A DNA stretch of 64,000 nucleotides, taken from NCBI GenBank assembly GCA_045110495.1, contig JBGCGE010000045.1, positions 10,462 to 74,461 on the forward strand, written 5' to 3'. The stretch is from Gammaproteobacteria bacterium. GTDB taxonomy: Bacteria; Pseudomonadota; Gammaproteobacteria; CAJXQU01. This document shows positions 39,312-44,261 of the stretch, piece after piece. A model generated the notes under the pieces. It was not told the DNA's origin. It made no database searches and was given only the letters and a program-made list of their open reading frames with translations. A program made the translations under genes and the position numbers. Numbering within the stretch: the first letter of the stretch is position 1; each line of letters starts with the position of its first letter.

Positions 39312-41803
39312 TCTCGACATTCTATTTGCGTTTGATCAAACGTCAGTGGCGTCTGGGAGCCGTACGCTTATTTTGTCTGGCTGTCGCGATTGCTGTCGCA
39401 GTAACGTTCAGTATTAATTTATTAAGTGATCGACTGGAACAATTATTTAATCAGCAAGCAAAAGAAGTGCTGGCGGCAGATCAGGTTTTAGAATCAACAT
39501 CCGCATTATCAATTAACCAAAAATCAGTTTTAGATTCTTCAACAATAGAAAAGGCCGAAACGGTTGTTTTTCCTACTATGGCAAGCGCTGAAGAAGAATT
39601 TTTACTGGTGAATTTGAAAGCCGTTTCAGAACAATATCCTTTACGCGGACAGTTACGAATCGCCGACGCTTTGTTTGAAGATCCGGTTCCGATCAGAACT
39701 GGACCCGCGATCGGAAAAGTCTGGGTAGAAGATCGCGTACTCAATGCATTGAATATTACGATAGGAGATCAACTTACTATCGGCGATCAAAAATTTGATG
39801 TAGAAAAAGTACTGGTTTATGAACCTGATCGCGGTGGTAGTTTTTATAGCTTCACACCGCGCGTAATGATGCATTTAGATGACCTTGCAGCGACAGGTGT
39901 TATCCAGGCTGGTAGCCGAGTCAAATACTATTATTTAATGGCAGGCGAGTCTGAAAGCCTTCAACAAATGCGTGATCAACTTAGCTCCGACTTGCAAGCA
40001 AACCAACGTTTTCTGACGGTCGAAGATACCAATGCTACTTTAGCCACAACATTGGAACGCGCATTTAGATTTTTATCGATTACCGCATTAATCGCTGTCT
40101 TGCTGGGAGCGGTCGGCGTGGCTTTAGTTAGTTATCAATATGCGCGAGAAATGACACAACCTTATGCCATTCTGCGATGCTTAGGTTTACATGGAAAACG
40201 TTTAAAAATATCTGTGATTTTACCACTATTTGTTTTCTCATTAGCTGCGATCTTGATCGGTTTATTGATCGGTTATGGCGCACATTTATTATTGCTCAAT
40301 AGTCTCGGAGGTTTATTACCCGATAACTTGCCTGGCGCGACAATTAAACCACTATTTATTTCTTGTTTGATGGCTTTGATCGTTGTGGTCAGTTTTGCTT
40401 GGCCGTTTATCTCACAATTGCTAACAACATTGCCGAAGCAGTTATTACATGCGACTGAGGTGCAAGCTTTTCCTATTGTGCGAGCCTCAATAGGCATGAT
40501 GATCGGGATTTTGATTCTGGTGCAAATTGCGACGCAAGAATGGCGTTTAAGCTTTGGTGTCATCGGTGGAGTGGCAGTTTTCGTTGCTCTGGCTTATGGC
40601 TTAACTCAATGGATCATTAACCTGTTAGTTAAGCATCGACAACGAAAGGGTAATGCTTATGCAAAACTGGGAGCAAGAATGCTCAGCGCAAATCGGCGGA
40701 TGGCGAGCATGCAGATTATTGCGATTGGGATCACCTTTTTCGCGTTAGCATTAATCCAAACACTACGTGATGATTTGCTTTCAACATGGCAATCAAAAGT
40801 CCCAGAAGATGCACCGAATGTCTTTGCGATGAATTTATTTGAAAGTGATAAAGCACTTTTTCAGTCGTTGCTAGAAAGAGAACAAATTACGCATAGTCCT
40901 TTTTACCCCGTCGTGCGAGGTCGGCTGACGGAGATCAATCAACAAGCTGTACAACGACGAGTAAGCAAAGAAGAAAAAGGTAATCGGGCAACAGAACGCG
41001 ATCTGGCTTTAACCTTTAGCCAGGAATTACCCAAAGATAATTTGATCACAAATGGAGCATGGCATGCAGCCGTTCCAGAAAAAGAGTCAAGCTCCGTTCC
41101 TGTTTCCGTCGAAGCAGAATTAGCCGAGCGTTTAGAAATTAAGTTGGGCGACAGATTGGATTTCACCATCGCAACGCAACGATTGTCAGCTATCGTAACC
41201 AGTCTCCGATCAGTCGAATGGGAATCTTTTACGCCCAACTTTTATATGATGTTTCCCCCCGGTGCGTTGGATGATTTACCGATCACATATCTAGGCAGTG
41301 TGCACTTAGAAAAAGAAAGAAGATCATTAATGGCTGACTGGATAAAACAATTTCCTAACGTCGCGTTTTTCGATGTCGATTATTTATTAAAAAGAATACA
41401 AGGGATTACACAGCAGCTGAGTTTGGCCTTACAAACGATTCTTTATTTTTCGTTAATTGCGAGTCTGGTTATTTTTATTTCCATTGAATTGATCCTTTAT
41501 CATTACCGAAGCTATAGCACCGCGATCTATAAAGCCCTGGGCGCAAAGACCAGTCTGATCCAGAAAATGTTTCGATCACAATTTATTCTGATCGGATTGA
41601 TCGCAGGCGGAATTGCATATGGTCTAAATCTGTTAACCAGTTTTCTTCTGAGCAAATATTTTATAGAAGGCGAAACTCAGATCAATATAAGCACGATTAT
41701 TCTTTGTTTAGTGATCACACCATTGTTAGTTTTGATCGCCGGTATGATTTCTATTCAAAGAACTAAATCAGTATCTGCCAAGGAATTGTTGGTTTCAGAG
41801 TGA
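39308..41803 (+). CDS. ybbP: FtsX-family ABC transporter permease (YbbP-like, duplicated FtsX module).
   Basis: 831 aa with two permease modules and large periplasmic loops. Start overlaps the ATPase stop. Confidence 0.75.
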   Translation: MISTFYLRLIKRQWRLGAVRLFCLAVAIAVAVTFSINLLSDRLEQLFNQQAKEVLAADQVLESTSALSINQKSVLDSSTIEKAETVVFPTMASAEEEFLLVNLKAVSEQYPLRGQLRIADALFEDPVPIRTGPAIGKVWVEDRVLNALNITIGDQLTIGDQKFDVEKVLVYEPDRGGSFYSFTPRVMMHLDDLAATGVIQAGSRVKYYYLMAGESESLQQMRDQLSSDLQANQRFLTVEDTNATLATTLERAFRFLSITALIAVLLGAVGVALVSYQYAREMTQPYAILRCLGLHGKRLKISVILPLFVFSLAAILIGLLIGYGAHLLLLNSLGGLLPDNLPGATIKPLFISCLMALIVVVSFAWPFISQLLTTLPKQLLHATEVQAFPIVRASIGMMIGILILVQIATQEWRLSFGVIGGVAVFVALAYGLTQWIINLLVKHRQRKGNAYAKLGARMLSANRRMASMQIIAIGITFFALALIQTLRDDLLSTWQSKVPEDAPNVFAMNLFESDKALFQSLLEREQITHSPFYPVVRGRLTEINQQAVQRRVSKEEKGNRATERDLALTFSQELPKDNLITNGAWHAAVPEKESSSVPVSVEAELAERLEIKLGDRLDFTIATQRLSAIVTSLRSVEWESFTPNFYMMFPPGALDDLPITYLGSVHLEKERRSLMADWIKQFPNVAFFDVDYLLKRIQGITQQLSLALQTILYFSLIASLVIFISIELILYHYRSYSTAIYKALGAKTSLIQKMFRSQFILIGLIAGGIAYGLNLLTSFLLSKYFIEGETQINISTIILCLVITPLLVLIAGMISIQRTKSVSAKELLVSE

Positions 41804-41825
41804 CCGCTATTAAGTGGAAAAAGCC

Positions 41826-42284
41826 TGTCATCCTGAACGATAGTGAAGGATCTCTGACCGGAACCACGTGATTACTTGGCAAGTTATGGATTTAAAAATG
41901 AGAATGAAATTCGTTATTTTGAGTTGAATTTGCTGTGGAAGTAACCTTCCCATGTGTCTTCAGAATGCACAAAGGGACTTCATCCTGGTATTGATAAGGA
42001 GGACATTGGGTTTAGACATAAAGGTATATTCTGCCTGAAAAGTTCGTTGCTCCGATGATAAGATCCTTCGCTATGCTCAGGATGACGCTGAAGTTTTGAA
42101 TTGGTTTTTTCTTGTTTAAAAGGAAAGTGTTCCAATCTGAGATCCTTCGCTATGCTCAGGATGACGGTCAGGTTTTGCTTCTGGTCGTTTCTTGTTTAAA
42201 ACAGATATGGCATTGAAGAGGAGATGTTTTTGTTATTTTCAGAACGATAATATTTATGTCATCCTGAACGATAGTGAAGGATCT
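41826..42284. repeat. Intergenic repeat cluster.
   Basis: TGTCATCCTGAACGATAGTGAAGGATCT occurs exactly at 41826-41853 and 42257-42284 (identical 28-bp direct repeats). AGATCCTTCGCTATGCTCAGGATGACG occurs at 42070-42096 and 42149-42175 (inverted variants), each starting a tandem unit of about 79 bp (about 42062-42219) that ends in TTCTTGTTTAAAA. Confidence 0.8.
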
Positions 42285-42332
42285 AAAAAACGGAGCCACA
42301 TAACTTCTAATTAAGTTCAGAAACCGAAGGTC

Positions 42333-42629
42333 TTAGATATCTTCAAACCAATCCCCAGCAAGATCATTCCATTGAGGATTTAAGCTTTCGACTAAATTGT
42401 TTTTCTTAATTCTCTTCCAACCCTTGATCTGTTTCTCTCGAGTAATAGCATCAATCATATTTCCGCACACTTCGAAATAAACTAATTTTGTGCAGTTGTA
42501 TTTTTTAGTGAAGCCTTCAAGTTGTTTAGTTTTGTGTTCATAAACTCTGCGTTCAAGATTATTTGTAACACCGGTGTATAGAACTTTATTATTTGGGTTG
42601 GACATCATGTAGATGTAGCAGGTGTTCAT
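42333..42629 (-). CDS. Small GIY-YIG nuclease-family protein.
   Basis: CYIYMMSNPNNKVLYTGVTNNLERRVYEH: GIY-YIG motif with conserved Arg and Glu; 98 aa. Confidence 0.75.
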   Translation of the reverse strand: MNTCYIYMMSNPNNKVLYTGVTNNLERRVYEHKTKQLEGFTKKYNCTKLVYFEVCGNMIDAITREKQIKGWKRIKKNNLVESLNPQWNDLAGDWFEDI

Positions 42630-42653
42630 GGTGTAAGTTGATTGTAAGCTGAA

Positions 42654-43046
42654 TTACTCGCTGTCTCGAACTCCGAAAAACCATAAGAAGAAACCAGCTA
42701 AAGCACCTACTGATACTGAGAACTTTAATGCATCAAAAATGATGGTACTTAATTTTTTGCCTCCATGAAAATGTGGTCCGAGTAGATACGTTATACAAAC
42801 GTTAACCAATAAGGAAAAAAACATACCTAAGAGGACAAGAGTGAAAAGGTTAATCTGATTTATTTTGTGTAATAGAAAATAGGCTGGAAGACTGAGTATC
42901 AGGCCTATAATGGTTCCAAGGCATTTCATTAAAGCTAGTGACACTGAGTAGAGAAAATTTTCACTCAAAATCGCAAGTGAAAATAAACCCACTGCGACAC
43001 CAGTAGCGAAAGGTGTAATACAAAAACCGGATGTGATTTTATTCAT
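42654..43046 (-). CDS. Small four-TM membrane protein, hypothetical.
   Basis: 130 aa, four predicted TM helices, no motif. Confidence 0.35.
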   Translation of the reverse strand: MNKITSGFCITPFATGVAVGLFSLAILSENFLYSVSLALMKCLGTIIGLILSLPAYFLLHKINQINLFTLVLLGMFFSLLVNVCITYLLGPHFHGGKKLSTIIFDALKFSVSVGALAGFFLWFFGVRDSE

Positions 43047-43070
43047 GACAATTACTTAACGATTTTCACT

Positions 43071-44261
<1,191 letters not shown>

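Follow-up and report, generated by a model that had tools for sequence, protein, structure and literature searches.

A 64,000-nucleotide stretch of contig JBGCGE010000045.1 from a Gammaproteobacteria bacterium (hereafter the window, numbered from its first letter) carries, between dapE and an FtsX/MacB-type permease gene, a small gene for a GIY-YIG protein and a cluster of short repeats beside it, both of which had been pointed out in a preliminary description made from the sequence alone. The locus is real and non-random and is of a type that has already been explained. We consider it very probable that it is an Ssn/SRM locus, with the 98-aa GIY-YIG protein as an Ssn nuclease and the four repeats as its cognate recognition motifs, the counterpart of the NTS repeats of Neisseria. 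The Ssn family consists of single-domain GIY-YIG proteins of ~94 aa (CDD cd10448; Chenal et al. 2025, Nat Commun 16:2388, PMC11893778). Its genes are flanked by hairpin repeats, which in Neisseria take the form called NTS, CGTCATTCCCGCGMAVGCGGGAATCYRG, and which in their general form are named 'Ssn-related motifs' (SRM) (PMC11893778). The N. meningitidis protein, SsnA, binds its motif as single-stranded DNA only and on one strand only, and cuts a few nucleotides upstream of it; cutting depends most on the nucleotides just 5' of the palindrome and binding most on the C just after it, while double-stranded DNA and RNA are not substrates and RNA is not bound (PMC11893778). The residues mutated in that protein were Y6, Y17 and E64, and meningococcal SsnA reduces transformation by NTS-containing DNA (PMC11893778). 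Among the explanations offered in the preliminary description, the one now favoured is thus that the repeats are target or recombination sites tied to the adjacent GIY-YIG gene, given the homology of its product to SsnA and the agreement of the repeats with the published architecture of the recognition motif.

The open reading frame beside the repeats, correctly read in the preliminary description as a small GIY-YIG gene, matches the Pfam family PF01541 over residues 4-76 (E 1.5e-17) and contains no further domain. We compared its product with the SsnA orthologue encoded on two N. gonorrhoeae chromosomes in PLSDB, which stands in for N. meningitidis SsnA and was recognised by its 94-aa length, by Y6, Y17 and E64 and by the NTS arrays that flank it. 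A tblastn search of 7.3 Gb with the window protein found one place per N. gonorrhoeae chromosome (44% identity, 97% coverage, E 2e-19), and a BLASTP comparison of the two proteins gave 44% identity over 95 residues with an E of 2e-29, a value, obtained against the gonococcal orthologue, that lies well below the E < 1e-10 to Neisseria SsnA used as the mark of homology in the Ssn paper. Read from an in-frame ATT, the gonococcal frame encodes 94 aa with Tyr6, Tyr17 and Glu64, which align with Y7, Y18 and E65 of the window protein. Among 58 homologues Y7, R28, H32, R64, E65 and K66 are invariant, and Y18 (at least 90%), R27 and E31 are nearly so. By its sequence, then, the 98-aa protein is assigned to the Ssn family and is a predicted site-specific single-stranded-DNA endonuclease. 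On the gonococcal side, the orthologue at 1878713-1884988 of NZ_CP119142.1 is unannotated in the PLSDB table, and no ATG, GTG or TTG precedes its conserved N-terminus, the in-frame ATT being its likely start; PLSDB files these complete chromosomes, of 2.17 Mb, as plasmids.

The AlphaFold model of the 98-aa protein (pLDDT 94.2) is a compact beta-beta-alpha-alpha-beta-alpha-alpha fold whose closest solved counterparts are UPF0213 BH0048, the GIY-YIG domain of UvrC and Slx1. There is no Ssn structure in the PDB; a search of PDB sequences with the single protein gave no match, and a profile search gave UPF0213 and UvrC only. Proteins of the UPF0213 family (E. coli YhbQ type; B. halodurans BH0048, PDB 1zg2) are likewise stand-alone GIY-YIG proteins of ~100 aa and provide the nearest solved structures, but they are distant (profile E 8.6e-7, 26% identity, TM 0.54, against the E of 2e-29 to the Neisseria SsnA orthologue). 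Homing endonucleases of the I-TevI type also share the GIY-YIG domain, and the first ~35 residues give a weak PHROG/TIGR01453 match; unlike them, however, the window protein has no DNA-binding domain and no intron or intein context, and the score is 17.9 against a cut-off of 56 bits. PADLOC and PHROGs hold no specific family for the nuclease, and a reading of the locus as a known defence system found no PADLOC match. The identical protein at NCBI is annotated as 91 aa, from the second in-frame Met, a start that loses the first beta-strand and the invariant Tyr7; the alignment with 57 homologues favours the 98-aa start at 42629 (start region 42609-42629).

The repeat cluster lies between the ssn gene and the convergent permease gene, which ends at 41803, and its features are collected in Table 1. 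The 28-mer TGTCATCCTGAACGATAGTGAAGGATCT occurs twice on the + strand (copies A and D), 100% identical and 431 bp apart from start to start. The 28-mers enclose a tandem pair of units, 42061-42121 and 42140-42201, with a spacing of 79/80 bp and 87% identity across 62 bp; on the + strand both start with AGATCCTTCGCTATGCTCAGGATGAC, the reverse complement of a diverged repeat copy, GTCATCCTGAGCATAGCGAAGGATC, and both close with TTCTTGTTTAAAA, at 42109-42121 and 42189-42201. The identical 28-bp direct repeats, the tandem units of about 79 bp and the slightly diverged inverted copies at their starts are therefore as the preliminary description had them, and its judgement that the arrangement is too ordered for random DNA is supported by shuffled sequence, where the 28-mer was matched in 0 of 100 shuffles. 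With a covariance model of the motif (R1), run over the 64 kb, the scores were 37-47 bits for the four copies (E 1e-8 to 1e-11) and 12 bits for the next-best site (E 0.27), a gap from which we conclude that the window holds exactly four copies, all at the ssn locus. Two further segments suspected by eye to be decayed copies, 41943-41967 and 41979-42004, were not supported by the model.

Table 1. Positions and properties of the ssn gene, the hairpin copies and their surroundings in the window, with the related ssn loci used for comparison.
Feature	Position	Strand	Properties
ssn-family gene, 98-aa single-domain GIY-YIG nuclease (predicted)	42333..42629	-	Tyr7, Tyr18, Arg27/28, Glu65; PF01541
Hairpin copy A	41826..41853	+	TGTCAT-CCTGAAC-GATA-GTGAAGG-ATCT; exact 28-mer; R1 match 41824-41857, 39.5 bits, E 2e-9
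Hairpin copy U1, reversed	42062..42086	-	GTCATCCTGAGCATAGCGAAGGATC; R1 match 42057-42089, 45.5 bits
Hairpin copy U2, reversed	42141..42165	-	Core same as U1; R1 match 42136-42168, 47.4 bits
Hairpin copy D	42257..42284	+	Identical to A; R1 match 42255-42288, 37.3 bits
Two tandem units	42061..42201	-	On the - strand, 34-35-nt leader beginning TTTTAAACAAGAAA, then hairpin motif
130-aa predicted membrane open reading frame	42654..43046	-	24 nt upstream of ssn, 24 nt downstream of dapE
Variable segment, 1,267 bp	41804..43070	.	Limits are exactly the permease and dapE stop codons; blastn against L129
ssn homologue between pilR and pilin gene	L001/L002		Same 28-mer present, identical
ssn homologue between pilR and pilin gene	L003/L004		Hairpins at most 100 bp away
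ssn homologue in Alkaliphilus metalliredigens	L005/L006		Hairpins at most 100 bp away
ssn homologue between anmK and tyrS	L007/L008		Hairpins at most 100 bp away

All four copies lie downstream of the ssn gene, on one side only and inside 510 bp. Copy A starts 22 nt past the stop codon of the permease gene, and copy D, which points the other way from the GIY-YIG gene, lies 48 nt past the stop codon of that gene. The spaces between successive copies are irregular (207, 53 and 91 bp) and the orientations mixed; together with the absence of a CRISPR-type Rfam match on the copies this rules out a CRISPR array, as the preliminary description had already judged. A single copy is by itself a small hairpin with oriented flanks, laid out as (T/C)GTC, ATCCT, GA, a 2-bp inner stem with a 3-4-nt loop, GA, AGGAT and C-T. 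The inner pairs are A-T and C-G in the direct copies (A and D) and G-C and C-G in the reversed ones (U1 and U2), so that the latter differ by a compensated change of the inner stem (A-T to G-C) and by a loop 1 nt shorter. The 3' flanks are mosaic: the cores pair A with D and U1 with U2, while the next 12-16 nt pair A with U2 and D with U1, which explains the longer inverted repeats found by a repeat search.

These copies share the features by which SRM are known. In all four, (T/C)GTCAT precedes the stem and C-T follows it directly, in keeping with the orientation rule for SRM (HGTCWY in front, C behind), and hairpin repeats of 20-50 nt beside an ssn gene, the other mark of SRM, are present on one side of the gene. 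All 150 aligned copies, including the 20 that fall outside the exact search pattern, keep GTC, the two GA dinucleotides and the C behind the stem unchanged; the invariant GTC and C correspond to the positions critical for cutting (5' nucleotides) and binding (C after the palindrome) by SsnA. In the alignment of 150 copies, which was fitted to the model and is hence biased towards structure, 98.5% of the cells are paired and six of the seven pairs show changes on both sides, values reached in 0 of 500 shuffles; controls in which the sequences were slid gave 32-52% paired. The 20 copies outside the pattern carry more weight: changes in the outer stem are compensated in 12 of them and uncompensated in 5, the compensated stems being ATTCT/AGAAT (nine times), ATCTT/AAGAT, ACCCT/AGGGT and ATCCC/GGGAT.

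Homologues of the nuclease are accompanied by the same kind of hairpin. The preliminary description had proposed looking for co-occurrence of the repeats with GIY-YIG genes, and in four of four independent contexts of homologues 64-69% identical to the window protein, GTCATCCTGA...GAAGGATCT hairpins lie at most 100 bp from the gene. Three of these contexts come from metagenome contigs and have proteobacterial-looking flanking genes, and the fourth is that of the Firmicute Alkaliphilus metalliredigens. The usual pattern in the related loci is a copy in the same orientation just upstream of the gene and one in the opposite orientation just past its stop codon; in the window copy D obeys the downstream rule, and the upstream copy is missing. 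At the gonococcal ssnA locus seven sites match NTS exactly and are accompanied by more dRS3 palindromes; the orientations alternate, and the tandem units measure ~252 bp. Several details of the related loci deserve mention. In L001 (4865-5616) and L003 (4867-5534) ssn and its hairpin arrays lie between pilR and a type IV pilin gene, and the arrays of the two contigs differ in length by one tandem unit of ~166 bp; NTS clusters in Neisseria are said to sit near surface-protein genes. In L007 (6654-6728, downstream of tyrS), two GTCAT-hairpins have other, fully paired stems, CGTCATTACAAGGGC...CCCGTGTAAT and CGTCATCACACGG...CCGTGTGAT, a form intermediate between the motif of the window and the Neisseria NTS, which indicates that several variants of the motif can share one genome.

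Several observations weigh against an Ssn/SRM locus. The search string published for SRM, HGTCWYN(0-2)YYVSBRHN(0-5)WNVSBRGN(0-2)RNCYNB, which is a heuristic of its authors rather than a definition (PMC11893778), matches none of the four copies in the window and none in L001-L008. Folded as single-stranded DNA, the single hairpins reach -2.0 to -2.7 kcal/mol, no better than shuffles. An upstream copy lies within ~110 bp of the gene in the other six ssn loci, whereas the window has none and only 24 bp separate the gene from the preceding open reading frame. NCBIfam has no specific model for the nuclease. Finally, the 64 kb contain four copies, every one next to the gene, which gives no ground for assuming a role across the genome as in Neisseria. 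As to the first point, the published pattern does match NTS, in three variants of its consensus, and eight sites of the gonococcal locus, and its mismatch to the motif of the window involves the T in CCT and the G.A/A.G positions; conversely, R1 does not detect NTS, and a model made from the published pattern does not detect the motif of the window. As to the second, since the energies are at the level of shuffles, the structural case rests on covariation instead, and formation of the hairpin, if it occurs, is probably dependent on the protein or on the non-canonical G.A pairs, to which the energy model gives only the score of an internal loop.

Beyond ssn genes the motif is widely dispersed. 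A scan with GTCATCCTGA-N(4-16)-GAAGGATC, taking one genome per species, gave at least 120 stretches. Among the matches listed, at least 12 phyla are represented, including Chloroflexota, Acidobacteriota, Bacteroidota, Firmicutes, Patescibacteria, Planctomycetota, Nitrospirota, Gemmatimonadota, Bdellovibrionota, Omnitrophota and Proteobacteria; only 3 of 120 stretches have an ssn-like open reading frame, with the motif 19, 21 and 59 bp away, the remaining 117 having no ssn gene nearby, and among neighbouring copies inverted pairs prevail, 35 of them convergent and 15 divergent, while direct pairs number 8. We take the low count on the motif side as a sign of dispersal and not as counter to the linkage seen from the gene side. 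The motif thus resembles a dispersed REP-like family in its behaviour, and the nuclease gene occupies the site of one copy among many, in agreement with the picture drawn in the Ssn paper. The idea of a MITE/REP-type family in the preliminary description stands as far as dispersal, the frequent inverted pairs and the position of most copies away from GIY-YIG genes are concerned; any mobility of the family is putative. Similarly, its refuting condition, that the copies be unique to the locus, is literally true inside the 64 kb, while elsewhere the motif is very widespread.

Such a distribution raises the question of whom the system serves. The repeats could be selfish elements of the REP/MITE kind, with motif-ssn-motif as a mobile unit and Ssn as its mobilising nuclease, comparable to REP/RAYT or IS200/IS605, and the cluster as a footprint of insertion and local amplification with no host function. 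The spread over phyla away from ssn genes, the prevalence of inverted pairs, the bracketing of the gene in related loci, the absence of the whole segment from the closest relative and its sharp boundaries and lower G+C (see below) favour such a reading, and the likeness to REP/RAYT and insertion sequences was raised by the authors of the Ssn paper themselves (PMC11893778). Against it stand the missing upstream bracket copy at the locus in the window, the failure to find a clean empty site, and the genomic whereabouts of the homologues, which reside on chromosomes or on large replicons of a non-mobilisable kind and of which viral contigs contain very few (4 relatives in 2.9 million, with no R1 match beside any of the four). 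To our knowledge, no strand-transfer activity has been described for GIY-YIG nucleases. We regard selfish repeats without host function as a minority possibility, and it overlaps with, and is compatible with, recognition of the motifs by Ssn, from which it differs only in the purpose of the system.

The genomic surroundings bear on the same question. In the closest relative found, L129, a 3.3-Mb contig, dapE still adjoins the permease gene; its DapE is 95% identical to that of the window, and for the DNA the identity is 88%. Nucleotide homology to the window ends exactly at the dapE stop codon (43071) and is picked up again at 41803, precisely at the stop codon of the permease gene. What the window has between these points, 1,267 bp with the 130-aa open reading frame, ssn and the four hairpins, is missing from L129 and is replaced there by 1,136 bp of other DNA, which comprises a methyltransferase gene and a duplicated stretch of 195 bp from the 3' end of the permease gene. 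This duplicate (L129 8221-8415, 84% identity) lies upstream of the methyltransferase gene and hints at an integration in which the end of the permease gene was restored. In three further relatives dapE is followed by other genes, without ssn in any of them, and no R1 copy was found in 60.5 kb of the four relatives. At 34-38%, the G+C content of the segment is below that of the genes on either side (42-48%). We therefore regard the cassette as lineage-specific and its place as a variable spot; that one lineage has it and that L129, with its 95% identical DapE, has other DNA there is compatible with horizontal movement but does not prove it. We find it doubtful that the module of motif and ssn came to lie between dapE and the permease gene as an autonomous or recently mobile element and forms a GIY-YIG counterpart of REP/RAYT; if it were so, the nuclease would spread or maintain its own hairpin repeats via single-stranded DNA, instead of or besides restriction on behalf of the host.

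Two more features of this neighbourhood were noted. The 130-aa open reading frame, which as part of the variable segment is missing from L129, gave no match in searches of Pfam, NCBIfam, PADLOC and PHROGs, and the gaps of 24 nt that separate it from dapE and from ssn make its co-transcription with both probable. Between dam and dapE, L129 (5542-6928) carries a PDDEXK_11 gene and a gene with a TIR_2 domain, where the window has only a short intergenic gap (44199-44261); this is a second variable spot, adjoining the first and possibly related to defence.

A different role for the cluster could be at the level of RNA, its hairpins serving as terminators or 3'-end stabilisers of the two convergent transcription units, or as small-RNA genes, with the GIY-YIG gene a bystander. 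The position between convergent genes would suit such a role, a terminator-like site lies at 42163-42189 on the + strand in unit 2, followed by TCTTGTTT, and, in the RNA folding that the preliminary description had asked for, the 529-nt region folds well on both strands (z -6 to -7). This strong folding of the whole region arises because the inverted copies pair with one another. The single hairpins, folded as single-stranded DNA, are weak. Terminator-like sites occur at background level (3, against 1.3 +/- 1.0 in shuffles), and a search of Rfam with permissive thresholds over 41000-43500 gave sub-threshold chance matches only. Moreover, the conserved GTC and C flanks follow the orientation of the motif, both orientations occur within the same intergenic space, the motif is tightly tied to ssn genes across phyla, and SsnA does not bind RNA (PMC11893778). 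We thus find an RNA-level function quite improbable, and the tandem small-RNA genes envisaged in the preliminary description lose their footing on the same grounds.

A remnant of a local duplication, or a chance arrangement, with no wider family behind it, would agree with the restriction of the copies to one locus inside the window and with the leader of the 79-bp unit, which is unique to the locus: it does not occur elsewhere in 137 fetched loci, from which we conclude that the 79-bp duplication itself is local. The same 28-mer, however, is present in the unrelated metagenome contigs L001 and L002, the core motif recurs in the stretches and phyla of the scan, and shuffled sequence yielded no match to the 28-mer, which leaves this explanation with practically no weight.

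The locus in the window resembles the SsnA/NTS system (PMC11893778) in its single-domain GIY-YIG protein of ~94-98 aa with the Tyr, Tyr and Glu residues aligned, in its oriented hairpin repeat with (C/T)GTCAT on the 5' side and a C directly behind the stem (in NTS CGTCAT, palindrome, C), and in the clustering of the repeats beside the gene in alternating orientation and tandem units. It differs in the stem, which here is ATCCT, G.A/A.G and a 2-bp inner stem and in NTS is a G+C-rich stem of 9 bp of the TTCCCGCG type; the hairpin is also much weaker and the copies lie on one side of the gene only. Neisseria genomes hold hundreds of copies, while the four found here were counted in 64 kb only. 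The dRS3/NIME (neisserial intergenic mosaic elements) of Neisseria are arrays of units of ~50-250 bp bounded by alternating short palindromes, as seen in the flank of gonococcal ssnA, and the 79-bp units look like a small version of them, although the repeat sequence and the organism are different, the units are only two and no integrase or phage is seen. dRS3 is a phage integration target. Like REP/BIME with RAYT (REP-associated tyrosine transposase, IS200/IS605 superfamily), the system has short, dispersed extragenic hairpins, often in inverted pairs, a small nuclease gene flanked by copies and, by analogy, a presumed recognition of the hairpin in single-stranded form; unlike RAYT, it has a GIY-YIG rather than an HUH/Y1 nuclease, and the motif sequence is unrelated. 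We know of no transposition chemistry for a GIY-YIG nuclease. An element of the REP/RAYT or IS200/IS605 type proper was rejected: the segment gave no HUH/Y1 match, and the sole adjacent nuclease is the GIY-YIG protein.

By homology with N. meningitidis SsnA, the protein would bind its motif only where the strand bearing GTCAT is single-stranded, a state that could come from transforming DNA, from replication or repair intermediates or possibly from an extruded hairpin, and the bound strand would be cut a few nucleotides 5' of the motif. The strand read would be the + strand for copies A and D and the - strand for U1 and U2. The motif consists of 5' YGTCAT, an ATCCT/AGGAT outer stem, tandem G.A/A.G mismatches, a short and variable inner stem and loop and an invariant C, usually followed by T. 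The array, with its direct, reversed, reversed and direct copies and its local 79-bp tandem duplication, represents the usual mode in which motifs accumulate beside ssn genes, as in the gonococcal ssnA locus. Cleavage specific for single-stranded DNA, the position of the cut and a role such as the restriction of incoming single-stranded DNA are carried over from the Neisseria system, and mobility of the module is likewise something we infer.

Compared with what the founding paper described, the locus pairs an enzyme of this family with a hairpin that has conserved tandem G.A mismatches and is missed by the published SRM string. Since this hairpin variant is found in at least 12 phyla and lies outside that string, surveys made with it probably undercount the repeats associated with Ssn. 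The overall picture of the Ssn system is unaltered by these points, and the locus in the window offers a clean example for a nuclease family first described in 2025, which is of interest for site-specific cutting of single-stranded DNA.

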